DNA of 64,000 bases from NCBI GenBank assembly GCA_965248965.1, contig CBDFKZ010000003.1, positions 501,306 to 565,305 of the forward strand, written 5' to 3'. The DNA is from Sphingomonas sp. (GTDB lineage: Bacteria > Pseudomonadota > Alphaproteobacteria > Sphingomonadales > Sphingomonadaceae). Each line of letters starts with the position of its first letter. The first letter of the stretch is position 1. Position numbers and translations under genes: made by a program. Shown here piece by piece: positions 15,312-64,000 of the stretch. The notes beneath the pieces are model-generated. The model ran no database searches. It was not told the DNA's origin and saw nothing but the letters and a program-made list of their open reading frames with translations.

Positions 15312-15787
<476 letters not shown>

Positions 15788-44625: not shown

Positions 44626-44628
44626 CAG

Positions 44629-45183: not shown

Positions 45184-45596
45184 GCGACCGCACTCACCTG
45201 GCGCCGCGGCGCAGGTTGTGGCGCGACCTTTGGCTTGGTGGCCTTGACCTTGGGCTCGATCGCCGGCGGCATTACCGCCTTTTTGCTCATGCTGACGGCC
45301 TCGACGATGCGTTCCGCCACGGAATCGGCGATGCCGGACATGACGGTCAGTTCCTCGCGCATGGCGGTTCCGCTCGCGATGACCTGTGCATTGGCCGCAC
45401 ATTCGGTCCTGAGAATTTCGCGCAGGTCCGCCAGGACCGTTCGAGCCTCCGCCGTCGACGCGTCGAGCGCCGAGATAATGGCGCCGAAGTCATCGCTTTT
45501 CACGGCGCGCAGTGCCCGGAGAAGGCGAAGGCTCTGCACCAGCACGGCTATGCAGAACATCATGGTGAGGATGTTGCTAAAGGTTGCGAAGGTCAT
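45180..45596 (-). CDS. DUF6468 / possibly PflI-like membrane-anchored coiled-coil protein
   Basis: N-terminal TM helix, coiled coil and Pro/Lys-rich tail; third gene of the fliL-fliM operon. Confidence 0.65.
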   Translation of the reverse strand: MTFATFSNILTMMFCIAVLVQSLRLLRALRAVKSDDFGAIISALDASTAEARTVLADLREILRTECAANAQVIASGTAMREELTVMSGIADSVAERIVEAVSMSKKAVMPPAIEPKVKATKPKVAPQPAPRRQVSAVA

Positions 45597-47115: not shown

Positions 47116-47254
47116 CGGCTTGCCTTTCGTTCCACGGACGCAGGAGAAATTGTTCCCGCCGCCCCAATTCATCTCGTTCCGTCTATTATAGGAGAGGTAC
47201 CGGGCAAATTCTGCCTAGTGCCATCGGAACGAAGATTTATCTGGAGCGAACGAG

Positions 47255-47998: not shown

Positions 47999-48043
47999 TG
48001 CCTGTCGCTTCCCGCTTCCTGATTTCTTCCTGAAAGGATTTCC

Positions 48044-48826: not shown

Positions 48827-48827
48827 C

Positions 48828-49301
48828 ATGCGGACCGTCCACATCCTGGTCGTGGGTATCGGCTTGCTGGCGGCGCCGCTGTTCGCTCAGTCCACCCTGC
48901 CGCCGGATCCGGTGGCGCCGACGGTCACGGTCCCCGTGCTCGACCATGCCGTCGCCAAGGGCGATCTGCTGAGTGCCGGCGATTTCGTGCCGAAGGAAAT
49001 ATCCGCGGCAGAAGCGCGCGGGGCTCCCGCGCTGAAGCAAGTCGTCGGCATGGAAGCGCAACGGGCATTGTCCGCAGAGAGCGTCGTCCGCACGTCGGAC
49101 GTCATCCGCCCGCAACTCGTCCGCCGCGGCGAGCCGGTCACGATCACCCTGCGCGATGGCGGCCTGTCGATCAGCACCGAGGGGCGCGCACTGGGCAGCG
49201 GCGCTGCGGGCGAATTCGTTCGCGTCGTCAGCCTGTCGACCAATCGCACGCTCGACGGCGTCGTCGAAGGCACCGGCGCTGTCCGCGTCGCAGCCCATTG
49301 A
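48828..49301 (+). CDS. flgA: P-ring chaperone FlgA
   Basis: SAF domain, VRRGEPV, GRALGSG; lies between flgG and flgH. Confidence 0.9.
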   Translation: MRTVHILVVGIGLLAAPLFAQSTLPPDPVAPTVTVPVLDHAVAKGDLLSAGDFVPKEISAAEARGAPALKQVVGMEAQRALSAESVVRTSDVIRPQLVRRGEPVTITLRDGGLSISTEGRALGSGAAGEFVRVVSLSTNRTLDGVVEGTGAVRVAAH

Positions 49302-49323
49302 ATCTTATCCCGGGAAATCGATC

Positions 49324-50091
49324 ATGAAACATTTCGCATCAATGACCTTGCTTGCCGGCCTGCTGTCGGGCTGCGGCGCCGTCGGCCACCTGAAAGCCGT
49401 CGGCAAACCGCCCAAGATGACGGCGATGGAAGAGATGCCGAGCCCCGCCGTGCAGCCCTCGATCGGCCTTCAGGGCGCGAGCAACCGTGCAGGCGGCGAG
49501 GTTGCGGCGGTCGCGCCGACGCCACCGGCGCCGGCGCCCAGTGCATCGCTGTTCCGTACCGGCGCCGGTGCGTTCTTCCGCGACCAACGTGCCGGGCGTG
49601 TGGGCGATATCCTGACGATCCGCATCAATGTCGCCGACAAGGCCGCGGTCGACAACACGACGACGCGCAGCCGCGGCGGCAGCGAGAAGTCGGGCATAGC
49701 GTCGCTGCTCGGCTTGCAGACCCCGTTGGCCAAGCTGACAGGCACGGATCCGTCGAAGCTGGTCGATACCAACTCGACGTCGCAGTCGAGCGGTGCCGGC
49801 AACACGAGCCGAAGCGAGACGATCAACATGACCATGGCGGCAACCGTCGTCGGCGTCATGCCCAACGGCAATCTGGTGATCCGCGGCAAGCAGGAAGTGC
49901 GCGTCAACTTCGAACTCCGCGAACTTGTCGTATCCGGCATCGTCCGCCCGGAAGATATCGCGCGTGACAACAGTATCCGCCACAGCCAGATCGCCGAAGC
50001 CCGGATCAGCTATGGCGGGCGCGGCCAGCTGACCGATGCGCAGCAGGCCCGCTGGGGACAGCAAATCTACGACGCGTTGTTTCCGTTCTGA
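49324..50091 (+). CDS. flgH: L-ring protein FlgH
   Basis: Lipobox LLSGC, FFRDQRA...VGDILT, GNLVIRG, ARISYGGRG. Confidence 0.96.
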   Translation: MKHFASMTLLAGLLSGCGAVGHLKAVGKPPKMTAMEEMPSPAVQPSIGLQGASNRAGGEVAAVAPTPPAPAPSASLFRTGAGAFFRDQRAGRVGDILTIRINVADKAAVDNTTTRSRGGSEKSGIASLLGLQTPLAKLTGTDPSKLVDTNSTSQSSGAGNTSRSETINMTMAATVVGVMPNGNLVIRGKQEVRVNFELRELVVSGIVRPEDIARDNSIRHSQIAEARISYGGRGQLTDAQQARWGQQIYDALFPF

Positions 50092-50109
50092 CTACAGTCA
50101 CTTGGTACA

Positions 50110-50125
50110 CTAACCCACAGTTAAC
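50110..50125 (+). promoter_or_regulatory. CtrA-like box upstream of flagellin
   Basis: CTAA-N7-TTAAC, one mismatch to TTAA-N7-TTAAC. Confidence 0.45.
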
Positions 50126-50267
50126 CTTAAATAAAACTGGGTGTTGATTTTGGTTAGCCTGTAATCCTTCCCACAATGAAGGGCGAGCCGGAAGACTTCG
50201 GTGCGTCGCGGGCCAGCGCTTCTGGCCCAGGTCGCAGAAGCGACCTTTCATCCAGAAGGACAAGATC

Positions 50268-51122
50268 ATGGGTTTATCGGTCAACACCAACACCGGCGCG
50301 ATGGCAGCTCTCCAGAGCCTGACATCGACCACCAAGGCACTCAGCATGACGTCGAACCGGATCACCACCGGTATGAACGTCTCGTCGACCAAGGATAACT
50401 CGGCAGCCTATACGACTGCCCAGAGCCTCCGCAGCGACCTGGGCGGCCTGCAGGCGGTGACTTCCTCGCTGGCACGCGCCAAGAGCGTGACCGACGTGGC
50501 GATCGCCGGTGCCGAGCAGATTTCCGATGTCGTCAACCAGATGAAGGCGAAGGCCTATCAGGCGGCCGATGCGGGAATCGATCAGTCAGCGCGTGACAAC
50601 ATCAACAAGGACTTCACGGCCCTTCGCGATCAGATCACGACGATCGTCAACGCGTCCAACTTCAACGGGACCAACCTGCTGAAGGCAAGCGGCGGCAGCG
50701 TTAGCGCGCTTCAGTCGCTGCAGGACTCGAACAGCACGACCACCGGCTGGCAGCCAGATGCGCTGTCGGTCGCCAACCAGGGCCTTGACCTGGGCGGCTC
50801 GGTGATCACGGTCGCCGCAAGTGGCAACGTCAGCACGGCTGCTGCTGCCACGTCGATGATCGACACGCTGACGACGACCCAGACCAACCTGGCCACTTCG
50901 CTCAGCGATCTGGGTTCGGCTTCGCGCAACATCGATGCGCAGTCGACGTTCACCAGCAAGCTGTCCGATTCGATCGATGCAGGTATCGGCAACCTTGTCG
51001 ATGCCGATCTGGCCAAGGAATCGGCGAAGCTTCAGGCTCTCCAGGTCAAGCAGCAGCTTGGCGTGCAGGCCCTGTCGATCGCCAACCAGGCGCCGCAGAC
51101 GATCACGTCGCTGTTCCGTTAA
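50268..51122 (+). CDS. Flagellin, Caulobacter Flj-type
   Basis: SVNTNTGAM...RITTG...GNLVDADLAKESAKLQALQVKQQLGVQALSIANQ; 284 aa. Confidence 0.97.
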   Translation: MGLSVNTNTGAMAALQSLTSTTKALSMTSNRITTGMNVSSTKDNSAAYTTAQSLRSDLGGLQAVTSSLARAKSVTDVAIAGAEQISDVVNQMKAKAYQAADAGIDQSARDNINKDFTALRDQITTIVNASNFNGTNLLKASGGSVSALQSLQDSNSTTTGWQPDALSVANQGLDLGGSVITVAASGNVSTAAAATSMIDTLTTTQTNLATSLSDLGSASRNIDAQSTFTSKLSDSIDAGIGNLVDADLAKESAKLQALQVKQQLGVQALSIANQAPQTITSLFR

Positions 51123-51134
51123 GGAATGGAGACA

Positions 51135-51156
51135 CCTCCGGCAGCAATGCCGGGGG
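51135..51156 (+). terminator. Hairpin after flagellin
   Basis: CCTCCGGCA-GCAA-TGCCGGGGG; further hairpins follow to about 51230. Confidence 0.5.
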
Positions 51157-51260
51157 CTTCTGCAGGGGGGCCGGGACGACGTGTATCGTCTCGGCCCTTC
51201 GCGTTTCCGCCGCCGGAATTCGTCCGGCGGCTCAGTTTGCTTTAGGTGGAGGAATCCGCT

Positions 51261-51665
51261 GTGTTTCCAAGAATTCGCGAGATCACGGATGCTTTCGGTG
51301 CGTGTCTGCGGGTCAGCGTCGATGCGCACCCGACCGGGGCGCTGGTGGTTTTCGACCGGCCCGACCGCATGCTCTATCCGACGGCCGTGCTCGATGGATA
51401 TGGCGCCGAGGTGCTGTGTGGCTATATCATGGCGGCCCGCCTGGCCCTGCCCAACGATCTGCCCGAAGAGGTCGTCGACGGGCCGTTCGCGTCGCGCTTC
51501 GGCCTTGAGCAAGGGGATCGCACGGCGCTGGTCGTCAAGCAGTCGGGCGCTCGCCATGATTTCGAGATCCCCGCGCCGTTCTGGGACCGGCTGTACGCCG
51601 AATTGTGCGTCGTCATCGCGCATTCGCGCGAGATCGGGCGCCGGTCGGCGACGCGGCTTCAATGA
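51261..51665 (+). CDS. Hypothetical protein
   Basis: GGAGGA RBS before GTG; globular-looking 134 aa; no family recognised. Confidence 0.75.
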   Translation: MFPRIREITDAFGACLRVSVDAHPTGALVVFDRPDRMLYPTAVLDGYGAEVLCGYIMAARLALPNDLPEEVVDGPFASRFGLEQGDRTALVVKQSGARHDFEIPAPFWDRLYAELCVVIAHSREIGRRSATRLQ

Positions 51666-51779
51666 CGTAGCAATACCTAGGCATTTTTCCTGAATAGTCG
51701 GCGCGCTCGGTCGCGCCCATCCGATTGGGGCCGGCGCATCTCGATGCGTCGGCTTGTCGCTTAACTCGCGGGGGGTCGC

Positions 51780-52226
51780 ATGAAACCGGAATATGTCGTC
51801 CTTGGCCAAGACCGGGCTGCTTATGCAAACACGCAGCCGCAGCCCGAATTTCGGGTCAGCCTGACGCTTGCCATTTCGGACACGCGCGCCCTCTGGACGG
51901 CGGCCGCGGCTCGCCTGCTTGCCGTGCCGGGCACCACGCTGGAAGAGGTGATCGAGGTTATCGGACCGAGTGAAGATCCCTCGCCGCATGACTGCCTTGC
52001 CGCGCTGACCAAGCCCGACGTCTTGCCCGGCTGTGTACTTGCCGATTTCTGGATCGACGGCTTGCCCGAGACCAAGGCGCGCCATGAGCCTGTCCGCAGC
52101 GCCGTGGAGCGCCGCGTGATCGCGGCCGAGCGTCCCGTAAAATCGATTTCTGCGCGAACAGAGGTTGCGCCCGGCTTGCGCATTTCCCTTTCGGACGGGT
52201 CCCCGCATCAACGACAGGTAAACTGA
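51780..52226 (+). CDS. Hypothetical protein
   Basis: 148 aa ORF with a G-rich RBS-like stretch, followed by a terminator. Confidence 0.7.
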   Translation: MKPEYVVLGQDRAAYANTQPQPEFRVSLTLAISDTRALWTAAAARLLAVPGTTLEEVIEVIGPSEDPSPHDCLAALTKPDVLPGCVLADFWIDGLPETKARHEPVRSAVERRVIAAERPVKSISARTEVAPGLRISLSDGSPHQRQVN

Positions 52227-52264
52227 CAGATCGAAGTTTCTTCGGGATCGCATTCACAAGAAAC

Positions 52265-52297
52265 AAAAAAAACAGGCCGGAAACGGCCTGTTTTTTT
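52265..52297. terminator. Bidirectional intrinsic terminator
   Basis: A8-CAGGCC-GGAAAC-GGCCTG-T7. Confidence 0.92.
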
Positions 52298-52380
52298 ATG
52301 TCGGGATAGGGACGGCGGGGAAGGTGGGAACCCGGAAGCAGTGGGGGCGGGGTGGGGGTGGGGGATGCTTCCGGGCTCCT
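52265..52380 (-). ncRNA. Candidate small RNA (or flgD 3' UTR element) with a C-rich loop
   Basis: TATAAT at 52386-52391 (minus strand); 14-bp stem starting at the predicted +1 with a 25-nt C-rich loop; U8 terminator. Confidence 0.55.
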
Positions 52381-52447
52381 GTTTCATTATAGAAAGGCGT
52401 CTTGCGTTGCGGCCTTTCTGCAAAAAAACTTTCTTACTTTCAGATGC

Positions 52448-53137
52448 TTACGCTGCAGAAGCGAGGCCGATCAGCGTGTTGATCGGCAATTGGGCACCGT
52501 TTACGTCGAGCGAAATTCCGCCGTTTTCCGCGCTGATGCCCCCGACCGTGCCGACGCTGTGGATCGTTACCGGCACGGTCGCCCCAGCGGCATTCCGAGC
52601 GGTCATCGACAGAGTGTAGGCACCTGCCGGCGCCTTGTCGCCATTGGCGAGCGTGCCGTCCCAGCTGAAGCTGCCCTGGCGACCGCCAAGGTTCACGTCG
52701 CGCGTGTCGACCACGGCGCCCGCGGCGTTGGTGATCTGCATCTTGCCCGAAGCTACGGCGACGTCCGCCGAATAGGTCCAGCTCGCCGGCTTCGCGCCCA
52801 GCCCGGCCACCGCGGAGTTGAATTCGGCGTCCTTGCCGATGAAGCCCGATGCCTGGGCCATGGTCTGGTTCGTCAGGCTGGCAAGAATGTCCTTCAGCGT
52901 CGACGATTGCTGGACGGTCTGTTCGACCTGCGAATATTGCACGAGCTGCTGGGTATATTGCGCGCTGTCCATGGGGCTCAGCGGATCCTGGTTCTGCATC
53001 TGCGTCGTCAGAAGCTTCAGGAACATGTTGAAATCAGCGCCGATTGTGCCCTTCGGCGATGTACTGGCAGTCGCCAGCGACTGCAGGCCGGTGCTCGCCG
53101 AAGCCGGAAGGCTGGCTGAGGGAGAGATGAGTGTCAT
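52448..53137 (-). CDS. flgD: Hook capping protein FlgD
   Basis: FLKLLTTQMQNQDPLSPMD, QYSQVEQ, FSWDG. Confidence 0.96.
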   Translation of the reverse strand: MTLISPSASLPASASTGLQSLATASTSPKGTIGADFNMFLKLLTTQMQNQDPLSPMDSAQYTQQLVQYSQVEQTVQQSSTLKDILASLTNQTMAQASGFIGKDAEFNSAVAGLGAKPASWTYSADVAVASGKMQITNAAGAVVDTRDVNLGGRQGSFSWDGTLANGDKAPAGAYTLSMTARNAAGATVPVTIHSVGTVGGISAENGGISLDVNGAQLPINTLIGLASAA

Positions 53138-53149
53138 GTCGGCTGTTTC

Positions 53150-54520
53150 CTATGCCATGAGGTTGTAACGGCCGCGCGTCTGCAGGGTGCGGAACGCGGT
53201 CTGGTCGAATATTTCGGGCTCTACATCGGCCCCGTTGCCCTGCCTGGGCGTGGCAGTCTGCCATGGCGTGCGCGGCTGGCCGCCGCTGCCTCGCTCACCG
53301 CTGTCGAAGCGCAAAACATGGGTTTCGCTGCGGAACCCGGCGTCGTTCAGGGCGCGCGACAGGTCGGCACTGTCCCGGCGCAACATGTCGAGCGCGGCCG
53401 GCTTGTCGGCAGCGAACACCGTGCTCAGGCCCCCGCGATCGTCGAACGACATGCGCACTTCGATCCGGCCGAGTTCGGCCGGCGAAAGATGGACGACCAG
53501 CTGGTCGCCGCCCGCAGAGATGCGCCGGACGACTTCCACGCCAAGATCATGGCCGAGGCGTCCGGGTTGTGCCGCGATGACCGGCTGCGCAGCCGGTGGC
53601 GCCTTTGCGTCCGGGGCATGGGTCGGCGCGCGCACGGACTCTTGACCGGTAAGGGCTGATGCACCCACCGACGTCTCGCCCTTGGCGGATGCCGCCGTCG
53701 GAAGCGCGAAACCCGCCGCATCGCCGTCAGGGCTCGCACGGGTCGCCTGACCAGTGGTCGGGTCGATGTCGTGTGCCGGGTGCCCCGAAATGCCGGTGAC
53801 GGCACCTTTGCCTGTCGCGGGATCGGGATCGACGCTGCCCCGGGTGCCCGGTGCGGCGCCGTTCACGCCCGGCACCGGCACGGCAGGAAGAGGAACGGCC
53901 GGCGACGCAACCGCCGCGACGGGCTCGCCGCCGAGTGCAGGATCGGGGTCTTTTTCGGCCTTTCCCGTGTCCGCCTTTCGCTCGGAAGGCTGCGCGTTGC
54001 GAACGGGTCCGGATCGGTCGAACGGCCGGGAAAGCACGACCATGCAGACACCGGCGGGCAGCGACGGGTCCGCTTCGCCTTCACCGGTATTTTTTCCAGT
54101 TTTCGGATCGCCCTTCGAGACAAGCTGGTCTGTCGGCTGATTCACTCCCTTTTGCACGGCGTTCTGGACAGGAACCGGCGGCGCCTCTCCGGTGCCGGGC
54201 GGAAGCAAGGGCTCAGCTTTGACGATCTGCGGCGACGGCGGCTCGAGCCCGGATGCGCCTGGCGTCGGTTCCGCCGGCACAGGCGCGCCGTCACTCGGAC
54301 CGGCGACCAGAATGTCCGGCCCGAAAAGGGGCGACGAGAGCGGCGTCTTCCCGCTTGCTCCCGTCGATGGTGCATCATTCTGCGTCGATGCGCCTGCAGT
54401 CCCCGCGAGCGACGAGTCGACCGCCGAGGCAAAGCCCGCGCTGCTTTCGCTTGCGGAGGCAGGGTCGGGTCGCAAGCTGGCAGGCGGTCTGACGGGTTGG
54501 GGCTTTACGGCGTAATCCAT
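53150..54520 (-). CDS. fliK: Hook-length control protein FliK
   Basis: Low-complexity Pro/Ala N-terminus and LSPAELGRIEVRM T3S4 domain; upstream of flgD. Confidence 0.9.
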   Translation of the reverse strand: MDYAVKPQPVRPPASLRPDPASASESSAGFASAVDSSLAGTAGASTQNDAPSTGASGKTPLSSPLFGPDILVAGPSDGAPVPAEPTPGASGLEPPSPQIVKAEPLLPPGTGEAPPVPVQNAVQKGVNQPTDQLVSKGDPKTGKNTGEGEADPSLPAGVCMVVLSRPFDRSGPVRNAQPSERKADTGKAEKDPDPALGGEPVAAVASPAVPLPAVPVPGVNGAAPGTRGSVDPDPATGKGAVTGISGHPAHDIDPTTGQATRASPDGDAAGFALPTAASAKGETSVGASALTGQESVRAPTHAPDAKAPPAAQPVIAAQPGRLGHDLGVEVVRRISAGGDQLVVHLSPAELGRIEVRMSFDDRGGLSTVFAADKPAALDMLRRDSADLSRALNDAGFRSETHVLRFDSGERGSGGQPRTPWQTATPRQGNGADVEPEIFDQTAFRTLQTRGRYNLMA

Positions 54521-54590
54521 GCAATGCCTCTCATCGGGGCGCGCAGGCCCTTGTCTCTCTTATAGACGGCTGGCGCTGCAGACGGCCGAT

Positions 54591-56672
54591 TCAGCCGATC
54601 GTCCCCAGCGCCCGCACCCGCGCGCGGGCGTGAATTTCATTCTGCGACAGCACCACGGTGGCGGGCCGCACCCGCTCGATGATCGAGCGGACGAAGGGCC
54701 GGATCGACGGATTGGTCAGCATGCACGGGATGTCACCATTCGCGGCCAATCGGTCGTATGTTTCGCGCACAGCGGCAATGAAGGCCTGCAGGCTCGACGG
54801 TGCCATCGCCAGATGACGGTCGTCGCCCTGGCCGACGATGCTTTCGGCGAATTCATTGTCCCAGTGCGCCGACAAGGTCAGGATCGGAATCGTCCCTTCC
54901 CGGGTTTGCTGGGCCGAGATCTGGCGCGCCAGCCGGCTGCGGACATGCTCGGTCATCAGCGTCAGATTCTGGTGCAGCGGCGCGGCCTCGGCGATCCCTT
55001 CCATGATCGTCGGAATGTCGCGGATCGAAATGCCTTCGGACAGCAGGTTCTGCAGGATGCGCTGGACGCCCGAGATCGAGATCTTCGACGGCACGATTTC
55101 GGAAACGAGCTTCTCTGAATCCTTGTGGATTTCGGTAATCAGCTTGTGCGTTTCGGTGAAGGACAGCAGGTCGGCGATATTGTCCTTGACCAGTTCGGTC
55201 AGGTGGGTCGTGATGATCGTGCCGCAATCCACCACCGTCAGGCCGCGGACGCCGGCCTCGTCCCGCATGGCGCGGTCGATCCACAGCGCCGGCAGGTTGA
55301 ACACGGGTTCGCGCGTTTCCTCGCCTGAAATGCCGAGATTGCCCCCGTCGGCGTTGATGACGAGCAGCTTGTCCAGCCGGATCTCGCCGCGTGCCGCCTC
55401 GGTCTCCTTGATGTAGACGACGTATTCGTTGGCCTGCAGCGCCATGTTGTCGATGATGCGGACCGCGGGCAGGACGAAGCCGAAGTCGAGCGCCATCTGG
55501 CGGCGCAATGCCCGAACCTGGTCGTCGAGGCGCGGCTCGGCCGTGGAATCGTTGATCAGGGGCAGCAGCGCATAGCCGATTTCCAGTCGAACGGAGTCGA
55601 TCGCCAGCGTCCGGGAAACCGGTTCGTCGGCCTGTTGCGCCGCGGCACCGGCGGTGGCTTCGACAAGACGCTCGGCCGCGACCTCGGCTTCGGCGCGCTT
55701 GGTCATCTTCCACGCCAGCCAGCCGGCAAGTCCGGCGAAGGCGGCAAACGGGATAAAGGGCAGTCCCGGCATGATCGCCAGGCCGCCCATCAGCGCCGCT
55801 ACCATGCCGAAAGCCTTGGGATACCGGCCAAGCTGGACGCCGAGAGCGGCGCCCGTCTTGCCGCTGACGCCGCCCTTCGACACGAGAAGTCCGGCTGCGG
55901 TCGATACGATCAGGGCGGGGATCTGGCTGACCAGCCCGTCGCCGACGGTCAGGATGGTATAGCTGTGGAACGCCTGGTCGATCGGCACGCCGTGAATCGC
56001 CACGCCGATGATGAGGCCGACGATGATGTTGATCGCCGTGATCATCAGGCCGGCAACCGCGTCGCCCTTCACGAACTTCGACGCACCGTCCATGGCGCCG
56101 TAGAACCCGCTTTCGGCTTCGATCTCGCTGCGGCGTTCGCGCGCCTGCTGTTCGGTGATCATGCCCGCCGACAGGTCCGCATCGATCGCCATTTGCTTGC
56201 CGGGCATGGCGTCGAGGCTGAAGCGCGCGGCGACCTCTGCAATTCGGCCCGAACCCTTGGTGATCACGACGAAATTGATGACGACGAGAATGGCGAAGAT
56301 GGTGAGGCCGATGACCGGTTCGCCCCCCATCAGGAATTCGCCGAACGCGCCGATGACGCCGCCGGCAGCCTGGCTGCCTTCGTGCCCGTGCGACAGGATC
56401 AGCCGGGTCGATGCGAGGTTGAGGCCCAGCCGCAGCATCGTGGCGATCAGCAGGATCGTCGGAAACGCCGACAGTTCGAGCGGCTTTTCGATGAACAGCG
56501 CCGTCATGAGGATCATCACCGACAGGGTGATCGACAGCGCAAGCCCCATGTCGAGCATCCACGCCGGCAATGGCAGGATCAGCATGGCGATGATGGCGAC
56601 GACCGAGCCCGCCAGCGCGATGTCCGGCGTAAGCCCGAAGCGCCGGGTCAGGTCGTTCAGTATCGATTTCAT
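54591..56672 (-). CDS. flhA: Export gate protein FlhA
   Basis: RIAEVAARFSLDAMPGKQMAIDADL, FYGAMDGASKFVKGDA, TVGDGLVSQIPAL. Confidence 0.98.
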   Translation of the reverse strand: MKSILNDLTRRFGLTPDIALAGSVVAIIAMLILPLPAWMLDMGLALSITLSVMILMTALFIEKPLELSAFPTILLIATMLRLGLNLASTRLILSHGHEGSQAAGGVIGAFGEFLMGGEPVIGLTIFAILVVINFVVITKGSGRIAEVAARFSLDAMPGKQMAIDADLSAGMITEQQARERRSEIEAESGFYGAMDGASKFVKGDAVAGLMITAINIIVGLIIGVAIHGVPIDQAFHSYTILTVGDGLVSQIPALIVSTAAGLLVSKGGVSGKTGAALGVQLGRYPKAFGMVAALMGGLAIMPGLPFIPFAAFAGLAGWLAWKMTKRAEAEVAAERLVEATAGAAAQQADEPVSRTLAIDSVRLEIGYALLPLINDSTAEPRLDDQVRALRRQMALDFGFVLPAVRIIDNMALQANEYVVYIKETEAARGEIRLDKLLVINADGGNLGISGEETREPVFNLPALWIDRAMRDEAGVRGLTVVDCGTIITTHLTELVKDNIADLLSFTETHKLITEIHKDSEKLVSEIVPSKISISGVQRILQNLLSEGISIRDIPTIMEGIAEAAPLHQNLTLMTEHVRSRLARQISAQQTREGTIPILTLSAHWDNEFAESIVGQGDDRHLAMAPSSLQAFIAAVRETYDRLAANGDIPCMLTNPSIRPFVRSIIERVRPATVVLSQNEIHARARVRALGTIG

Positions 56673-56682
56673 CGGACGGTGC

Positions 56683-58023
56683 TCAATGCGCCGGCTCGAC
56701 GGCAATGCCGGCCTCGATGAATGTCCTCAGCTTGTTGCGCATCGTGCGCACCGAGATGCCGAGGATCGTCGAGGCCGTGGTGCGGTTGCCGCCGCAATGT
56801 TCGAGCGTGTGAAGGATCAGGTCGCGTTCGACATCGTCGACGGTGCGACCGACGAGGGACGCGGCCGGATCTCGGCCGATCGTGGGCTTCGATGCCCCCA
56901 GAGGCTTGCCGTCGGCCGCGACGATCGCGCTGCCCTGGATCCGTTCGCCCTGGGCAAGCAGGACGGCGCGATGGATCACGCTTTCGAGCTCGCGGACATT
57001 GCCGGGCCACTCATGGCGGGTGAGCGACTGTATGGCATCGGGCGCGAAGGGACGCGCGGCCAGGCCGTTCGCGGCGGCGAACCGCGCGCCGAAATATTGC
57101 GCGATGGCGATGATATCGTCGCCACGTGTGCGTAGCGGCGGTATCGCTACGCGGACGAGGGACAGGCGCGTAAGCAGGCTGCCGAGGAACTGCCCCTTGG
57201 CGACGAGGGCGTCGAGATCGACGGACGTGCCGGCGATGATGCGCGCGTGCGACATCGGGGCGCCGCCTTCGGCGGACCTCGCTTGCTGCACCTGGAGCAT
57301 CGTCAGCAGGCGCGCCTGGGTGGCGAGCGCCAGCGATCCGATTTCGCGCAAATAGATGGTGCCGTACCGGGCGTCCTCCAGCCCGCCACGGCGCGGCGCG
57401 ACGGCACCGGCGAAATCGCCGGCGCCATGGCCGAACAGTTCGGAGTCGATGATGTCGCTGCTCGTGCTGGCGCAGTCGACGGTCAGGAAGCGTCCGGTCC
57501 TTGCCGATGCGGCGTGCACGGTGCGGGCGAAGATTTCGCGACCGCTGCCGAGCTCCCCGCTGATGATAATGGGTGCGCTCGACGGCGCCATGGCAAGGCC
57601 GAGCGACAGCGCGCGACGCAGTTCCGGGTCGTCGCCGACGAGCCGGGCGCCATGCCGGGCCACCGACAGGATTGCCGCTGCAATGAGATCGGCCTGCGGC
57701 GGCAGCGGGACATAGTCGCGCGCGCCGCCCCGAATGGCGGCAACGGCGCGGTCGGCCGACGCGTCGATACCGCAGGCGATGACCGGGACGGCGATATGTT
57801 CGGCGCGGAGTTGCGCGATGAAGCGCGCAACGTCCTCGGCGACGTCGATCATGACAAGATCGCTGCCCGTGTCGCGCAATTTGCGAAGCGCCGTGCCGGC
57901 GTCGTCCGCCATGACGACATTGGCGCCGGTCTCTCGGGCCATCGCGGCGGCGGTGCGGAATTCGCTGCCGGGCGCGCCGACCAGAAGCATGTGAATGGAT
58001 CCGGTAGCCAGCACCACGCTCAA
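56683..58023 (-). CDS. flbD: FlbD-like regulator with degenerate AAA+ domain
   Basis: Receiver + AAA+ + Fis HTH (ILGISVRTMRNKL), downstream of fliN as in Caulobacter; catalytic motifs altered. Confidence 0.88.
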   Translation of the reverse strand: MSVVLATGSIHMLLVGAPGSEFRTAAAMARETGANVVMADDAGTALRKLRDTGSDLVMIDVAEDVARFIAQLRAEHIAVPVIACGIDASADRAVAAIRGGARDYVPLPPQADLIAAAILSVARHGARLVGDDPELRRALSLGLAMAPSSAPIIISGELGSGREIFARTVHAASARTGRFLTVDCASTSSDIIDSELFGHGAGDFAGAVAPRRGGLEDARYGTIYLREIGSLALATQARLLTMLQVQQARSAEGGAPMSHARIIAGTSVDLDALVAKGQFLGSLLTRLSLVRVAIPPLRTRGDDIIAIAQYFGARFAAANGLAARPFAPDAIQSLTRHEWPGNVRELESVIHRAVLLAQGERIQGSAIVAADGKPLGASKPTIGRDPAASLVGRTVDDVERDLILHTLEHCGGNRTTASTILGISVRTMRNKLRTFIEAGIAVEPAH

Positions 58024-58394
58024 TGCTCCTGGCGGACGATTTCGGTCAGCGTTACGCCAAGCGAATTCTCAATCATCACGACCTCGCCGCGGGCGATGAG
58101 GCGGTTGTTGACGAAGATGTCGACCGGCTCGCCGACGCGGCGATCGAGCTCGACCACGGCGCCCGCTTTCAGCTGCATCAGCGCGCCAATCGCAATGCGT
58201 GACCTGCCGAGCACGGCCTGTACCTTGACGGGCACGTCATAGACGGCCTCCAGGCGTTCGGCCGCCGCCTCGGGCGTCTCGCTTACCGGGTCGGGCCCGC
58301 CGAAATCCTCGAGCGGCGGCGGGTTACCGGGAAGGTTTTCCGCCAGCATCACTTCCTGCGCTTCGCTGTCCATGTTTTGGGGAGTCTCCATCAT
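58020..58394 (-). CDS. fliN: Motor switch protein FliN
   Basis: AVYDVPVKVQAVLGRS...GEPVDIFVNNRLIARGEVV. Confidence 0.95.
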   Translation of the reverse strand: MMETPQNMDSEAQEVMLAENLPGNPPPLEDFGGPDPVSETPEAAAERLEAVYDVPVKVQAVLGRSRIAIGALMQLKAGAVVELDRRVGEPVDIFVNNRLIARGEVVMIENSLGVTLTEIVRQEH

Positions 58395-60031
58395 GCGTTC
58401 ATCCACTGGCGGATCACCGACGCCGCTTCGGCGGGGCTTTCACTGACCGATGTGCCGATCTTCTTGAGCGACGACAGTTTGATGCGGCCGTCGACCTGGG
58501 CGAGGGCGATTTCCTGGTCGAGCAACGCGGTGTCTTCGCCCGCGACCCGCATCGCGTCGATCTGTTGCAGCGCTTCGGGGTCGCCGCTGGCGATCCGCGT
58601 CGCGAGTGCCTGCGCGTCGGCCGTCTGGTTCGTCAGCAGGCGTTCGTCGTCGGCACGCTGGCCGGGCTTGGGTCGCAGCATGCGCATGGCAATCAGTCCC
58701 GCCCCGGCGATCACCAGCAATTTCAGCAGGCTGAATATCTGATCGGCCGAGATCCAGGAGACATAGGACATGAGCCCGCCTTGTCCGTCGCCAGCCGCGT
58801 CGGCTGCGGCAAAGGCCATGTTCTCGACGACGACGCTGTCACCGCGTGCCTGGTCGAAACCGACCGCATTCTGGACGAGGCGCGTCAGCCTCGCGATCTC
58901 GGGTGCCGGCAGGCCTTTCTTGCCGCCGTCGACCATGACCGCGACGGTCAGCCGCGTCAGCTTGCCCGGTGCGCGCACCGTGATGGTGTGCGTCTGGCTG
59001 TTCTCGTACGTCGTGTCCTCGGACGTCTCGTTGCGTGCGGACTTGCGGGTGTCGCCGCCGCCAGCGCCGGTCCCCGCAGCGCCCTGGTTTTCGGGGAGCT
59101 GCGTGCCGACGGAAACGCCGGCCGGGGCAGGGCCGTTCTCGTTGCTCTGGTCGCCGCTTTCGACGGTGACCTGATGGCCGATCACCTGCTTGTCGGGATC
59201 GAAGACATTGGTTTCCTCGCGGGTCTGGTCGCGCGCGACCTGAGCCGACACTTCGGCGCGAACCTTGCCAATGCCGACGATCGGTTCGAGCATTCCTTCG
59301 ATCTGCGATCGAACACGGTTCTCGATGCCGGTCTGGCGCTCGTCCGCCGCAGAGGCGCCTGCGTCGTCGGCATCTCCCGCCCGCGCGAGCAACGCGCCGG
59401 TCTGGTCGACGATCGACACCTGTTCGGCCGAAAGTTCCGGCACCGACGAGGAGACGAGATAGCGGATCGCCTGTACCGCGCTGGCGGGAAGCCGTCCGCG
59501 CGTCTTGAGCGACACGGCCGCGGTGGCCTTGCGCGTCTCGGCGGCGAACATCGCCCGTTCGGGCATGACGATATGCACGCGCGCCTTGGCCACATTGTCG
59601 AGGCTCTGAAGCGACTTTTCGAGTTCGCCTTCGATCGCGCGCGTCTCGTTCATGCGCGCGCGCGACGACGACACGCCGAACGGCTGTTCCGCGTCGAGCA
59701 CTTCGTAGCCGACCTTGCCGCTCAACTTGTCGGCAGCCATCGCCATGCGCAGCTCGGGCAATTTGTCCTTCGGCGCCATGATCGACGTGCCATCGGCGGA
59801 AAGCTGGAACGGCACGTTCTGCGCAGTCAGCTTGGCGGTGATCGCCTGCGCGGTCGAGGCATCGAGGTCGGTATAGAGAAAGCCCATTTCGCTGGATCCG
59901 CCGCGCATGGCGACGGTCGCGAGCACGCCGAGGAGGGCGAGGGCGACACCGCCCATGATGAAGAGGCGCCGCGACCCCAGCTGCGCGAAAAATTTCTGCA
60001 ATCCGTCCAAGACCGGCTCCGCCACTGACAC
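58391..60031 (-). CDS. fliF: MS-ring protein FliF
   Basis: Two TM helices, GYEVLD, RAIEGEL, ARVHIV, RLTVAVMVDG, NAVGFDQARGD. Confidence 0.96.
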   Translation of the reverse strand: MSVAEPVLDGLQKFFAQLGSRRLFIMGGVALALLGVLATVAMRGGSSEMGFLYTDLDASTAQAITAKLTAQNVPFQLSADGTSIMAPKDKLPELRMAMAADKLSGKVGYEVLDAEQPFGVSSSRARMNETRAIEGELEKSLQSLDNVAKARVHIVMPERAMFAAETRKATAAVSLKTRGRLPASAVQAIRYLVSSSVPELSAEQVSIVDQTGALLARAGDADDAGASAADERQTGIENRVRSQIEGMLEPIVGIGKVRAEVSAQVARDQTREETNVFDPDKQVIGHQVTVESGDQSNENGPAPAGVSVGTQLPENQGAAGTGAGGGDTRKSARNETSEDTTYENSQTHTITVRAPGKLTRLTVAVMVDGGKKGLPAPEIARLTRLVQNAVGFDQARGDSVVVENMAFAAADAAGDGQGGLMSYVSWISADQIFSLLKLLVIAGAGLIAMRMLRPKPGQRADDERLLTNQTADAQALATRIASGDPEALQQIDAMRVAGEDTALLDQEIALAQVDGRIKLSSLKKIGTSVSESPAEAASVIRQWMNA

Positions 60032-60105
60032 CGGGCTGCAAAGCCCGTCAGATCATTATAGGAGGAAGCGGTGGGAAAAATTTGCCGGGTAGGAAATTCT
60101 TGCCG

Positions 60106-60786
60106 TCAGGCGGGGTCAGCCGTCGCCTCGGCCGCCGCCGGCACGTCGAGGCCAAGTTCGGTCAGGATCGCCGCCCGGCGCGCCTCGGCGTTGAGCGCAA
60201 GGCCTCCCTGCTCCCAGGAAATCAGGGCATCGCCAATGGCCTGTGTTGGATCGCCGATGGCAAGCAACGACAGGCGACGCCGCTCGCGCCCCTGCCGCCC
60301 GGCGATCAACTCCTCTGTCGCCTCGAGCAGCGACGGATGAACCCGGATCTGCAATTCCTGCCCGCGGGCAACTTGTGTGAGCACACGGCCGATGGCTTCG
60401 TCGATAGCTGCAGTCGGGTCGCTTTCCAGCGCGCGAGCAGCCAGCCCCTCTGCAGCGGCCATCGCGACTTCGGCGGCGGCGCGCGACGTGCGCAGCTCGA
60501 CGGCCTCGAATTCGTTCTCCACGGCTTCGATCGAGCTGTGCAGTGCGTCGGTTGCCGCGAGCATCGCCGCGTTGACCTCCCCGCGCGCATGCGCAAGTCC
60601 GGCCTCGAAGCCTTCGGCACGGGCAACCGCGACATTCGTCTCGAGCATCGATCGCAACAGGTCGACCTCGGCGGTCAGGGCCATGATGCGTTCGCTGTCG
60701 TTCTGTCCGGGCGCCGCGCGCGCGGGGCTGGCCGCCGCGAAGACGCGATCGAAAGCAAACGGCTTGATGTGAAATGACTGGTCCAA
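60106..60786 (-). CDS. fliH: FliH (FlbE-like)
   Basis: IKPFAFDRVF N-terminus, GFEAG, GDALISWEQGG. Confidence 0.85.
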   Translation of the reverse strand: MDQSFHIKPFAFDRVFAAASPARAAPGQNDSERIMALTAEVDLLRSMLETNVAVARAEGFEAGLAHARGEVNAAMLAATDALHSSIEAVENEFEAVELRTSRAAAEVAMAAAEGLAARALESDPTAAIDEAIGRVLTQVARGQELQIRVHPSLLEATEELIAGRQGRERRRLSLLAIGDPTQAIGDALISWEQGGLALNAEARRAAILTELGLDVPAAAEATADPA

Positions 60787-60813
60787 ATGCCGTCCCCGTC
60801 CCGTTCGCTCAGT

Positions 60814-61863
60814 CTACAGGATCATCGCGTCGTCGTTCTTCGGATCGACGAGCATGATTTCGCCGCTGTCGGCGAGTTGCTTGGCAAGCCGGACGAGTGC
60901 GCTTTGAGCCTCTTCGCATTCGCGCGCGCGCACCGGACCCATCGCCGCCATGTCTTCCTTGAGCAGCTTGGACGCGCGTTCGGTCATCGCCCCGAAGAAA
61001 AGGTCGCGCATCGGCGCCGGCGCCCCCTTCAGGGCGAGCGCCATTTCGCGCTTGTCGGCGTTGCGGACGATCGTGGCGACGGCCGGTTGCATCAGGTTAC
61101 CGAGATCCTCGAAGGTGAACATCAGCGCGCGGATCCGTTCGGCAGCGTCGGGCGCCTTTTCGTCGAGCGCCGACAGCATGGCTTCCTCGGTCGCGCGGTC
61201 GAGCGCGTTGAACACTTCTGCCATTGTTTCGTGCGGGTCGCGCCGCTGCGAGCGTGACAGGTTGCTCATGAACTCGTTCTTCAGCGTATGCTCGACCTCG
61301 ACCAGCACCTTTTTCTGGACGGTATCCATGCGGAGCATGCGCATGATGACGTCGACCGACAAGTCGCGCGGCAGCTCCGCCAGGACGCGTGCGCCGTGGT
61401 CGGGCTTGAGCTTGCTCAGGATGACGGCGACGGTCTGGGGATATTCGTTCTTCAGATAGTTGGCGAGGACGTTTTCGCTGACGTTGGACAATTTGTCCCA
61501 CATCGTGCGGCCTGAGGGGCCGCGGATGTCCTCCATGATTTCCTTAACCCGGTCGTCGGGCAAGATGCCGTCGAGCAGCCGCTCGGTCGTTTCGAACGAT
61601 CCATGCAACGACGCCATGCTCGAAATCTCGCCCGAAAACTGGACGAGCAAGTGTTCGACGACGACCGAGGGCACACGGCCCAGCTGCGCGATGGCCGCCG
61701 ACAGCTCGCGCACCTCGTCGTTGGACAGCATTTCCCAGATGGGCGCGCCGTGTTCCTTTCCCAGCGCCAGCATCAACGCAGCAGCCTTTTCGTGGCCGGA
61801 AAACTTCTTCAGCTCGGCAGGCGGATTACTCAGCGCCAACATACTCTTTCGGCTCCCAGACAT
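60814..61863 (-). CDS. fliG: Motor switch protein FliG
   Basis: EKAAALMLALG, EYPQTVAVIL, MFTFEDL, NMTE-like AMTERAS, EEAQ. Confidence 0.96.
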   Translation of the reverse strand: MSGSRKSMLALSNPPAELKKFSGHEKAAALMLALGKEHGAPIWEMLSNDEVRELSAAIAQLGRVPSVVVEHLLVQFSGEISSMASLHGSFETTERLLDGILPDDRVKEIMEDIRGPSGRTMWDKLSNVSENVLANYLKNEYPQTVAVILSKLKPDHGARVLAELPRDLSVDVIMRMLRMDTVQKKVLVEVEHTLKNEFMSNLSRSQRRDPHETMAEVFNALDRATEEAMLSALDEKAPDAAERIRALMFTFEDLGNLMQPAVATIVRNADKREMALALKGAPAPMRDLFFGAMTERASKLLKEDMAAMGPVRARECEEAQSALVRLAKQLADSGEIMLVDPKNDDAMIL

Positions 61864-61947
61864 ATAATGAAGGTTAACGCGTCATCACGGCGGCACATGC
61901 GTCTATTATAGGAAGGAGAAGACGCGCGGAGCTCAAGCGGTGATCTT

Positions 61948-64000
61948 ATGACGGTAAATCTTTCAAACGGCCTGGCCGCCCTGTCGATGCTGTCGAACAC
62001 GAACAGCTATGCCGATTTTGCAACCCCGGCAGCGCCGGAATCGCTTGCCGTCCGCAAGGCGAAGGCTCAGTTCACGCTTGCGCCCACGACCCCGCCCTGG
62101 AAGCAGCCTGCGACGAAGACGCCCGAAGCTTCCCGTATCACGGCGATCAAGCAGCTCAGCACCATCATCGACAATACCACGACGTCGCCCACTGCCGGCT
62201 CGCGCGATGTCCAGACTGCGTTCACAACCTACAAGGCGCTCGACAAGCTGATGCTGCTGGCGACGGCCGCGTCGCGGACGACGACAACCGACAGCGAGCA
62301 CGTCAGCCTGCAGACGGCATTCGCCAAAGGGCTGAGCGATCTGCAGCAGTTCCTGGGCCAAGCCGGGTCGGACAAGGTCAATTTGTCGTTCGGGCTTCCC
62401 ACGCGCCGGGCGGAGACCGTGCCGATAACGCCGTCCGATCCGGTCAAGTTCACCGGCAAGGGCATCGTCGACGCGCGCGACGCGCCGCTGCCGCTCGACG
62501 GAACCGAAGTTTTCAAGATCTCGCTCGACAAGCCGGGTGCGAGCGACACGCTGACCATCGACATGTCGAAGGTCGTGCTGCCGGCAACGCTCGATCGATT
62601 GTCGAGCGCCTTCAACGATGCCATCAAGGCGATCGAACTGCGCAAGCCCGATGGCTCGGTCGTGCTCGACGACAACGGCAATCCGACGCCCCGCTGGCTC
62701 GTTCGCTTCCTGCCCGACAAATCCACGGGCAAATGGGGGCTGTCCGTGCAGGCGCCGAACGGCGCCGAGCGCGTCTCGATCGATCAGGTCGGTGCGCCCG
62801 ACGCGCTCGTCGTCGCCACCGGGCAAACGGCGGTGGGCGCTGCGCCGGTGACGCAAATGCTGCGCTTCAACGACGCTGCCGGCGACCTGGCCCGCGATCC
62901 GCTGGCGACGATCGCCGCGACCGACACCGCGGGAACGGCGCGTGCGAAGCTGACGGCGACGAAGCCCAAAACCCTTCCCGGCACCACGCCGCCGCCGGCA
63001 CCCGGTCCCCTGCAGGCCGCAACGACCACGCAAGCGATCACGACCGACGCTGCCGGTAACACCTATCTCGTCGGCACGACGGCCGGCGACCTTCAGTCCA
63101 ACCGGTCGAGCGGTTCGGAAGATCTCTTCCTGACGAAGCTCGACAGCGAAGGTGCCGTGGTCTGGCAACGCAGCCTCGGTGCGCCCGCGGGCGCAAAAGG
63201 TGCAGCCATTGCCGTCGCTGCCAATGGCGATGTCACGGTTGCGGGCACGGTGACGGGCATGCTGGATGGGCAGAGCACCGACGGCGACATGGTCGTTGCG
63301 CGCTACGCCGCAAATGGCGACGAGAAGTTCGCCACGGTGTTGCAGTCGGCAGGTCCCGACAGCGCCAATGCGCTGGCGCTGGGCGCCGATGGCTCGGTCT
63401 TTGTCGGCGGCAAGGCCGCGACCGGCGGCGGCGATGCGTTTGTCGCGCGCCTCGACGCATCCGGCAAGGTCCAGCAACGCCGCACGATCGACGGCGGCGG
63501 CAGCGATTCCGTCACCGCGCTGGCCGTGGACGGCGACGGCAATTTGCTTGCCCTCATCAACAGCAACGGCGTGGCGCAGCTGCGGCGTCTGAGCTCGGAC
63601 GCGCTTGGTACCGAGCTCGGTAGCCTTTCGCTCGGCCAGGCCGATGCGCGCGCACTCGCCGTGGCGCCCGATGGCCAGATCGCTGTCGCCGGCGCAACCA
63701 GCAAGGCGCTGAACGGCGCACAGGCGAATTCGAGGAGCGACGGGCGCGACGGCTTTGTCACGCGGATCAACAGCGCGCTTGGCAACGCCACGACCACCTA
63801 TATTGCAACGCCCGCCGACGACCAGGTCGACAGCGTCGCGTTCATGAACGGTGCGATCTATGCCGGCGGCCGCACCGCCGGGGCGATCGAAGGCAACCGC
63901 ATCGGCTCGGTCGACGGCTTTGTTGCCCGGCTCGACGCCGCCAGCGGCGGCATTCAGGACGTGACCCAATTCGGCCAGCAGGCGATGTCGAGCGAACCCG
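61948..64000 (+). CDS. Large SBBP beta-propeller repeat protein, FlaEY-like (runs off the window end)
   Basis: Frame from ATG 61948, translated at its start and around 63.0 kb, with no stop seen: TTPPW N-terminal motif and repeats such as ITTDAAGNTYLVGTT...DLFLTKLDSEG. It is absent from the ORF track, consistent with no stop inside the window. Confidence 0.8.
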   Translation, partial: MTVNLSNGLAALSMLSNTNSYADFATPAAPESLAVRKAKAQFTLAPTTPPWKQPATKTPEASRITAIKQLSTIIDNTTTSPTAGSRDVQTAFTTYKALDKLMLLATAASRTTTTDSEHVSLQTAFAKGLSDLQQFLGQAGSDKVNLSFGLPTRRAETVPITPSDPVKFTGKGIVDARDAPLPLDGTEVFKISLDKPGASDTLTIDMSKVVLPATLDRLSSAFNDAIKAIELRKPDGSVVLDDNGNPTPRWLVRFLPDKSTGKWGLSVQAPNGAERVSIDQVGAPDALVVATGQTAVGAAPVTQMLRFNDAAGDLARDPLATIAATDTAGTARAKLTATKPKTLPGTTPPPAPGPLQAATTTQAITTDAAGNTYLVGTTAGDLQSNRSSGSEDLFLTKLDSEGAVVWQRSLGAPAGAKGAAIAVAANGDVTVAGTVTGMLDGQSTDGDMVVARYAANGDEKFATVLQSAGPDSANALALGADGSVFVGGKAATGGGDAFVARLDASGKVQQRRTIDGGGSDSVTALAVDGDGNLLALINSNGVAQLRRLSSDALGTELGSLSLGQADARALAVAPDGQIAVAGATSKALNGAQANSRSDGRDGFVTRINSALGNATTTYIATPADDQVDSVAFMNGAIYAGGRTAGAIEGNRIGSVDGFVARLDAASGGIQDVTQFGQQAMSSEP

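Follow-up and report, generated by a model that had tools for sequence, protein, structure and literature searches.

In Alphaproteobacteria FlbD is the textbook sigma-54 activator, tying late gene expression to the assembly of the flagellum, and every named homologue of the flbD-like gene described here is annotated as a 'sigma-54-dependent transcriptional regulator'. The gene lies on the minus strand of a 64,000 nt stretch of a Sphingomonas sp. genome (assembly GCA_965248965.1, contig CBDFKZ010000003.1, nt 501,306 - 565,305; hereafter the window, in whose own numbering all coordinates are given, Table 1), within a large flagellar gene cluster, and its product departs from the canonical sequence at motifs of the ATPase and of the sigma-54 contact loop. 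The question raised by this locus is whether such a protein is still an enhancer-binding ATPase and, if it is not, in what capacity it has been kept. The answer to which we incline, with moderate confidence and on the basis of sequence comparisons, is that it is a regulator of the FlbD lineage that has become a sigma-54-independent, FliX-partnered DNA-binding protein acting at sigma-70-type flagellar promoters, and that it would no longer be an enhancer-binding ATPase.

The maximal open reading frame (ORF) comprises 446 codons beginning with TTG, and a GTG at nt 58017, the choice of gene callers, is the likely start, giving a protein of 444 aa; the stop codon of fliN (nt 58020 - 58022) directly abuts the ORF. 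The frame is uninterrupted, as the initial annotation of this locus had stated. Among NCBIfam models the Caulobacter-type FlbD (NF050807) is the best by a wide margin (440.5 bits, below the equivalog cut-off of 750), and the AAA+ core and lid are homologous to those of enhancer-binding proteins (EBPs) by their Pfam scores (Table 1). The protein matches the sequence of ZraR (PDB 1OJL) with E = 2.4e-55, while a look-up for its exact sequence returned no entry.

HMMER alignments to the solved chains of ZraR, NtrC-family proteins and NifA (E = 2e-55 to 6e-47) put GELGSGRE, GDFAGA and IYLRE opposite GDSGTGKE, GAFTGA and LFLDE, and these three stretches are therefore the true Walker A, L1 loop and Walker B positions. 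The initial annotation had read the same three motifs, and the codons place all three at precisely the coordinates given there. Five residues are missing from the AAA+ domain, namely the Lys of Walker A, the Asp of Walker B, the Thr of GAFTGA, the sensor-I Asn and the switch Asn, the last of which is paired with the Walker B Glu in the glutamate switch (PMC7175178). The sensor-I and switch changes, and a Leu in place of the Arg equivalent to PspF R162, come in addition to those noted in the initial annotation. The arginine finger (LLTRLS) and the sensor-II Arg (GNVRELE) are retained.

The receiver Asp and the FlbD-type helix-turn-helix (HTH) had also been described as intact. For the HTH this stands, as it does for the Asp itself (codon nt 57844 - 57846), which is conserved in all 120 relatives defined below; for the receiver as a whole the word says too much, as its pocket is otherwise missing. 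The acidic pair after beta-1 is absent (the sequence reads GAPGSE), the conserved Lys aligns with a Leu (DYVPLPP opposite EFLEKPF of 3DZD), and the Pfam receiver score of 26.1 falls below the gathering score of 30.2. Judged by these features, the domain is a pseudo-receiver. The receiver of Caulobacter FlbD has likewise been reported to be divergent, control being exerted by FliX and not by phosphorylation (PMC3096577).

To what extent these changes belong to the lineage can be seen from the 120 closest protein clusters at 90% identity, which are 53 - 100% identical to the window protein and of which all named ones are from sphingomonads (Sphingomonadaceae). At the Walker B Asp position 116 have Arg, three Ser and one His, and none has the Asp found in all canonical representatives. 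The GAFTGA Thr is lost in 118 (most often to Pro, 76, or Ala, 24) and kept in two, and the switch-Asn position is occupied by Glu (75), Asp (44) or Asn (1), compared with Asn in 15/15 canonical FlbD-like representatives. The position equivalent to PspF R162 varies (R 81, N 23, Q 9, L 7). Other changes are narrower: the Walker A Lys to Arg replacement occurs in 8/120, made up of the whole subclade P0001-P0005 (81 - 100% identity) and three other clusters, and GAF to GDF (6/120) and FR to FL (7/120) are both largely confined to this subclade. The Walker A Lys is retained in 112 relatives, the sensor-II Arg in 108 and the arginine finger in 103. Among more divergent members the L1 loop has been deleted outright (the P0133 cluster, with Sphingorhabdus sp. 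M41, and P0140 and P0168), and the next relatives, at 41 - 43% identity, are fully canonical (GESGTGKE, GAFTGA, LLLDE). An exhaustive search of 50%-identity representatives found about a dozen clusters that share the Walker B Arg, one of them from Iodidimonas. The key substitutions are lineage-wide, a property of the whole clade and not of this gene alone, and sphingomonad FlbD is marked by a distinctive pair of residues, Arg at the Walker B Asp and an acidic residue (Glu or Asp) at the switch position.

That these replacements are conserved and occur in concert, not at random (the switch position being Glu or Asp in 119 of the 120), and that the P-loop Lys, arginine finger and sensor II are kept in most members, would also fit a remodelled nucleotide pocket that senses some other ligand, either cyclic di-GMP (c-di-GMP), as in FleQ and VpsR, or Mg-free ATP, and that gates DNA binding or oligomerisation. 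Precedents are VpsR (PMC6158489) and FleQ (as cited in PMC12754779), and a GGDEF/EAL gene adjoins the cluster in the relatives' loci L087 (nt 9980 - 11599) and L088 (nt 10005 - 11585), where it follows an XRE-type HTH gene and the sigma-like gene described below. In the subclade of the window protein, however, the P-loop Lys is gone too, as is the Arg equivalent to R162, which points to nucleotide binding being lost further and not to a tuned site, and we regard ligand sensing as unlikely.

Selection on the gene was estimated by comparing window genes with those of three close relatives (L081 - L083). The ratio of nonsynonymous to synonymous substitution (dN/dS) of flbD is 0.09 - 0.15 overall, at dS of 0.66 - 1.13, and the gene is under purifying selection; values for the neighbouring flhA, fliF, fliN and fliG are 0.01 - 0.07. 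By domain, dN/dS is lowest in the HTH (0.01 - 0.08), followed by the receiver (0.05 - 0.11), with looser constraint on the AAA+ core (0.12 - 0.16) and lid (0.10 - 0.21). Mean identities within the sphingomonad clade are 81% for the HTH, 63% for the receiver, 55% for the lid and 53% for the AAA+ core, the lowest of the four; in canonical FlbD-like proteins the corresponding figures are 44%, 29%, 45% and 61%, the core being the highest. The ranking of the domains is thus reversed relative to canonical FlbD, and the HTH is the most constrained part. Taken together, dN/dS and domain conservation indicate that the protein has been maintained, with constraint now weighing on the receiver and the DNA-binding domain where it formerly lay on the motor domain.

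These values bear directly on whether FlbD is simply a functionless, decaying relic of a silent flagellar cluster, a notion to which the loss of several catalytic residues lends some colour, as does the description of a cluster-bearing relative, Sphingomonas sp. CJ20, as non-motile in culture (PMC13576999). The ORF is intact in the window and in more than 120 clusters, the HTH is under the strong constraint just described, the G+C content at third codon positions (GC3, 0.83, in a window of 65% G+C) is similar to that of adjoining genes, and the gene order of the region is kept across genera. Contigs matching the flagellin gene with 0 - 1 mismatch were present in three freshwater metatranscriptomes at a word depth of 33 - 144 per bin, and since flagellin is transcribed in nature the cluster is not silent; coverage of the remaining cluster, flbD and the promoters included, was slight. 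Strain-specific decay of a silent cluster, one of the outcomes that the initial annotation had named as fatal to its inference, is ruled out by the lineage-wide substitutions together with the abundant flagellin mRNA, and the relic explanation as a whole is largely refuted and extremely improbable.

A search of the whole window for the sigma-54 promoter pattern TGGCAC-N5-TTGC with up to two mismatches gave 71 matches against 73.6 expected, none of them in a flagellar intergenic region. With the GG/GC of the -24/-12 element fixed and at most one mismatch, none was found in nt 44001 - 64000 of the window or in the relatives' loci L081, L086, L087 and L088, and one each in L084 and L085, neither at a flagellar promoter. 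Across nine sphingomonad loci, that is, the window and the eight loci L081 - L088, these sequence-based searches found no flagellar promoter with a -24/-12 element. The pattern CTATAAK(R)(R), by contrast with its expectation of 0.13, occurs seven times in the window; six of the seven are minus-strand matches that precede fliG, fliF, fliK, fliL, an unassigned gene and a candidate small RNA (sRNA). A weight matrix adds elements at flbT-fliI and flgE, giving eight CTATAAT -10-like elements in the cluster (Table 1). Their shared form is tCCTATAAT(R)(R), with no common -35 element evident; nearly all flagellar operons are marked by such an element, and they recur at the same places in the loci of all eight relatives, down to 54 - 59% FlbD identity, and also at flgI. 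The hook, fliK-flgD and flgI operons are sigma-54-dependent class III operons in Caulobacter (PMC3930126); as CTATAAT elements stand at all three, operons of class III type in Caulobacter have a TATAAT-type -10 in sphingomonads.

A candidate for a dedicated flagellar sigma factor, and for the reader of the tCCTATAAT promoters, is a divergent sigma-70-family gene in the flagellar supercluster (Table 1). Its product gives weak matches to RpoH, ECF and FliA models, is conserved at 58 - 90% identity in those sphingomonad genomes in which the degenerate FlbD is also encoded, and adjoins flbT-fliI also in L087 and L088 (Sphingomonas sp. CJ20 and Stakelama tenebrarum). The interval between this gene and the gene upstream of it contains CATCCTATA(C/A) twice, at a distance of 25 nt and pointing away from both genes; the pair could serve antisense transcription or autoregulation of the sigma-like gene.

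The promoter data also permit a judgement on whether FlbD is still a genuine sigma-54 activator, one that hydrolyses ATP with non-canonical residues and contacts sigma-54 through the retained Phe of L1. The window protein keeps ESELFGH, and the Walker A Lys, arginine finger and sensor-II Arg persist in most relatives as counted above; the Sphingomonas literature transfers the sigma-54 role to FlbD by homology, and the paper on Sphingomonas sp. WG assumes it (PMC8921679). In addition, TGGCACGCTTATTGA, 38 nt upstream of the start of glnB-glnA, is a near-consensus -24/-12 element with A replacing the -12 C. This is a hint that sigma-54 is still in use for the nitrogen genes of the organism; in the flagellar cluster there is no such site. 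Nevertheless, the Walker B Asp is absent from every relative, the switch Asn, sensor-I Asn and GAFTGA Thr have been lost clade-wide, and the window protein has lost the Walker A Lys as well; sister lineages delete L1, and the AAA+ core is the least conserved domain. As the operons for hook, rod and ring carry CTATAAT-type -10 elements and the flagellar promoters of the nine loci are all without a -24/-12 element, continued sigma-54 activation appears highly improbable.

What the constrained HTH may bind is suggested by a palindrome, GGCA-N5-TGCC with an A/T-rich centre, that is conserved only at the fliF, fliL and flgE/flbT promoters. In about 170 kb of sphingomonad loci, all seven perfect A/T-centred palindromes (7/7) fall within these three promoter regions. 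The fliF promoter of the window carries two tandem, half-degenerate copies, with centres at about -50 and -32 from a start placed by means of the -10-like element. Between fliL and flgF there is a perfect palindrome, and this together with its -10 element is the only block there that is conserved out to L085 and L086. The copy between the divergent flbT-fliI and flgE promoters is degenerate in the window and perfect in L087 and L088 (GGCAAAATTTGCC) at the same spacing, with centres near -46 and -48 from starts placed in the same way. In the canonical FlbD locus L002, GGCAGTTTCTGCC immediately precedes fliF and is flanked by a CtrA-like box. In Caulobacter, PfliF is bound and repressed by FlbD, which is found at class II promoters as well (PMC3930126, PMC4083442). 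Centres at -31/-32 (and about -50), as at fliL and fliF, would be of repressor type, and those at -46/-48, as at flgE/flbT, of activator type; sequence cannot separate a repressor from an activator role, and the geometry of the sites suggests both.

FlbD might instead act mainly by protein contacts, for example by titrating FliX or the sigma factor of the cluster, with the palindromes belonging to another factor. The receiver and AAA+ domains are kept under selection although catalytically dead, FliX-FlbD complexes are very tight in Caulobacter (PMC3096577), and most of the CTATAAT promoters have no palindrome. Such a role sits poorly with the HTH being the most constrained domain, with the occurrence of the same type of palindrome at fliF of a canonical FlbD locus, and with the restriction of the palindromes to exactly those operons that FlbD controls in Caulobacter, and is accordingly rated as distinctly unlikely.

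We therefore return to a DNA-binding FlbD at sigma-70-type promoters, which is close to the inference of the initial annotation that the protein is kept as a DNA-binding repressor or a sigma70-type activator. All the computational tests point in the direction of that inference, which draws support, at the level of sequence, from the lost catalytic and contact residues, the purifying selection, the constrained HTH, the lack of sigma-54 promoters in the cluster and the operator-like palindromes. Several points weigh against it. The L1 Phe is retained in 120/120 relatives. Most members of the clade have the Walker A Lys, arginine finger and sensor-II Arg, and nucleotide binding may persist and matter. 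As a bare pattern GGCA-N5-TGCC shows no enrichment in the window (4 matches, with 1.8 expected), its support coming from positional conservation only; the link between palindrome and FlbD is drawn from the canonical locus L002 and from that positional conservation, and the -31 and -46 placements are reckoned from -10-like elements rather than mapped starts.

FliX (PF10768) is encoded in the flagellar cluster of every relative, about 9 kb upstream in L081, L082, L084 and L086, the equivalent position lying past the end of the window. In the mechanism that we propose, FlbD would bind GGCA-N5-TGCC operators, of the palindrome type seen also at the fliF promoter of the canonical locus, and these operators would lie inside sigma-70-type flagellar promoters that have a tCCTATAAT -10 and lack a -24/-12 element. 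At fliF, the promoter of its own operon, and at fliL the site overlaps the -35/spacer region, and FlbD would most likely repress there, so that the negative feedback on class II genes described for FlbD of Caulobacter would be preserved. From its site at the divergent flgE/flbT promoters it could stimulate RNA polymerase by direct contact and with no need of ATP hydrolysis. The AAA+ domain would be kept as a scaffold for oligomerisation and FliX binding, with FliX presumably remaining the assembly-checkpoint input. A salt bridge between the Walker B Arg and the switch Glu/Asp may occupy the Mg-ATP site and hold the domain in a single conformation.

The closest known system is FlbD of Caulobacter crescentus, which shares with the window protein the receiver-AAA+-HTH_8 architecture, the fliF...fliN-flbD-flhA neighbourhood and a pseudo-receiver, which in Caulobacter is without phosphorylation control, and, going by the relatives' loci, FliX in the cluster. 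It has an operator at the fliF promoter and a dual role as repressor and activator (PMC3930126, PMC3096577, PMC4083442), to which the candidate operators and the proposed dual role of the window protein would correspond. Caulobacter FlbD has GAFTGA (bioRxiv 10.1101/2023.06.06.543975) and activates sigma-54 class III/IV promoters, whereas the window protein has GDFAGA and its presumed target operons are without -24/-12 elements. Canonical FlbD-like representatives have standard Walker motifs, while in the window protein, 41 - 43% identical to the nearest of them, five residues of catalysis or coupling are missing.

The same kind of change is known for NtrC (Rhodobacter, Caulobacter), NtrX, TyrR and VpsR; for FlbD no description was found in the literature searched. 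NtrC of Rhodobacter capsulatus and Caulobacter are alphaproteobacterial EBP homologues in which the loop that contacts sigma-54 is gone and whose targets are promoters of sigma-70 type (bioRxiv 10.1101/2023.06.06.543975). In these GAFTGA-less NtrC proteins L1 is deleted, the Walker motifs are kept and control is by phosphorylation, with ATP binding needed in R. capsulatus, and binding and hydrolysis predicted to matter in Caulobacter; in window FlbD the loop is kept with substitutions, the Walker B Asp is replaced by Arg and the receiver is no phospho-acceptor. VpsR of Vibrio cholerae and FleQ of Pseudomonas aeruginosa also have the EBP fold, act at sigma-70 promoters as activator and/or repressor, and have an AAA+ domain repurposed for ligand binding (PMC6158489; FleQ as cited in PMC12754779). 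They are gammaproteobacterial, bind c-di-GMP and belong to other orthologous groups. FleQ, a flagellar regulator like FlbD, still activates sigma-54 promoters, unlike the role suggested here for the window protein. The alphaproteobacterial NtrX (PDB 5M7N; match to the query at 4.6e-44) has a receiver-AAA+-HTH arrangement without a classical GAFTGA, but is of another orthologous group, with a shorter L1, a true phospho-receiver that works with NtrY, and a regulon outside the flagellar genes. Window FlbD is matched by the NCBIfam TyrR model at 1e-46. In TyrR and PhhR the AAA+ domain is of sigma-54 type but has no functional GAFTGA, and both repression and activation are exerted at sigma-70 promoters; unlike window FlbD, they have ACT/PAS sensory domains, form hexamers in dependence on ligand and ATP, and have no flagellar link.

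The cluster itself is of alphaproteobacterial type, and the base composition of the window and the named homologues point to Sphingomonadaceae. On the minus strand it holds fliG, fliH, fliF, fliN, flbD, flhA, fliK and flgD, and on the plus strand flagellin and flgF-flgG-flgA-flgH, followed by fliL-fliM, again on the minus strand; at 35 - 42 kb of the window there are also flbT-fliI, flgE, flgK and flgL. The flbD gene sits in a fliF...fliN-flbD(-flhA) operon, in the same order as in the canonical loci L001 and L002. These two, with L007 and L042, were the only usable canonical control loci from a contig search with the clade alignment, which was discarded as a source of sphingomonad loci, as it matched generic EBP patterns in unrelated phyla. 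As FlbT is encoded in the window, post-transcriptional control of flagellin is likely retained.

Table 1. Positions of the flbD-like gene, its domains and motifs, promoter elements and other features in the 64,000 nt window
Feature	Position (nt)	Strand	Remarks
flbD-like gene	56683-58023	-	Pfam: receiver, Sigma54_activat, AAA_lid_14, HTH_8; best NCBIfam model FlbD
Pseudo-receiver domain	57664-57996	-	Pfam receiver, sub-threshold
Degenerate AAA+ (sigma-54 interaction) core	57148-57642	-	PF00158 (Sigma54_activat), 126 bits
AAA+ lid domain	56929-57132	-	PF25601, 68 bits; sensor-II Arg kept in GNVRELE
Fis-type HTH_8 DNA-binding domain	56725-56841	-	Pfam 46.1 bits, intact
Walker A GELGSGRE	57535-57558	-	GGG GAG CTC GGC AGC GGT CGC GAA; Lys to Arg
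L1 loop GDFAGA	57403-57420	-	GGC GAT TTC GCC GGT GCC; replaces GAFTGA
Walker B IYLRE	57343-57357	-	ATC TAT TTG CGC GAA; Asp to Arg
Switch-Asn position (LNCAA)	57475-57477	-	Asp
PspF R162-equivalent Arg	57184-57186	-	Leu (FRxDL to FLGSL)
Tandem half-degenerate GGCA-N5-TnCC, fliF promoter	60092-60104, 60074-60086	-	kept in six relatives; proximal copy perfect in L086
Perfect palindrome GGCAGAATTTGCC, between fliL and flgF	47203-47215	.	11 nt upstream of fliL CTATAAT; centre about -31
Degenerate palindrome copy CCGAATTTTTGCC, between flbT-fliI and flgE	37541-37553	.	26 and 28 nt from two divergent -10 elements
CTATAAT -10-like, fliF-fliN-flbD-flhA operon	60055-60061	-	
CTATAAT -10-like, fliG	61905-61911	-	
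CTATAAT -10-like, fliK	54559-54565	-	
CTATAAT -10-like, candidate sRNA	52386-52392	-	
CTATAAT -10-like, fliL	47185-47191	-	
CTATAAT -10-like, unassigned gene	44174-44180	-	
CTATAAT -10-like, flbT-fliI	37505-37511	-	
CTATAAT -10-like, flgE	37581-37587	+	
Divergent sigma-70-family gene	33069-34169	-	region 4 34 bits, region 2 weak
Pair of CATCCTATA(C/A)	34260-34300		
Near-consensus -24/-12, glnB-glnA	15674-15688	-	
flbT	37075-37572		
Flagellin gene	50219-51041	+	
Flagellin upstream region	50092-50267		
Candidate sRNA	~52262-52392	-	downstream of flgD
Positionally conserved ORF	42055-44142	-	no Pfam or NCBIfam family
Positionally conserved ORF	44629-45402	-	weak Pfam MgtE_N match only, none in NCBIfam
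Positionally conserved ORF	51246-51665	+	no Pfam or NCBIfam family
Positionally conserved ORF	51780-52226	+	no Pfam or NCBIfam family
Positionally conserved ORF	32431-32961	-	no Pfam or NCBIfam family
Positionally conserved ORF	34339-35295	-	no Pfam or NCBIfam family
HTH_31-like gene, cluster edge	31153-32409		
FixJ-type response regulator, cluster edge	30426-31106		

Some further features of the cluster may be mentioned. The candidate sRNA has a flagellar-type CTATAAT promoter. It begins with a hairpin of 14 bp, whose C-rich loop measures 25 nt, and this is followed by a linker, likewise rich in C, and by an intrinsic terminator. Its minimum free energy is -47.9 kcal/mol (z = -9.0), the hairpin occurs in six lineages with 9 compensatory pairs, and a comparison with Rfam returned no matching family. 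The region upstream of flagellin has a conserved TTAACCTTAAATAAA block resembling a CtrA box, a weaker -10 element (CTGTAAT) and a 5' leader, about 100 nt long, that is strongly conserved; a candidate CtrA-box pattern, TTAACC...TAAA, is found upstream of both flagellin and fliG. Six ORFs of the cluster are positionally conserved in relatives (Table 1), and one of them, of 695 aa, is served by a flagellar-type promoter of its own. An HTH_31-like gene and a FixJ-type response regulator border the cluster.

A wider proposal can be put forward more tentatively, and is held here as possible rather than probable. It is that Sphingomonadaceae, and at least Iodidimonas, may have rewired the flagellar hierarchy off sigma-54, with the sigma-70-family factor of the cluster reading -10-dominated tCCTATAAT promoters at essentially every flagellar operon. 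FlbD would then be an ATP-independent, FliX-gated, operator-binding switch, its pocket sealed by the co-evolved Arg and Glu/Asp, and the regulon would include the conserved C-rich sRNA.

If FlbD is ATPase-dead and the flagellar promoters are of sigma-70 type throughout the lineage, then current annotations and regulatory models would be wrong for a large and ecologically important order. The sphingomonads would also represent a natural experiment in which an enhancer-dependent circuit was converted into an ordinary activator/repressor circuit while the checkpoint partner FliX and the operators were kept, and the defined, co-varying substitutions of the pocket would provide a means of probing why a catalytically dead AAA+ ring is retained.

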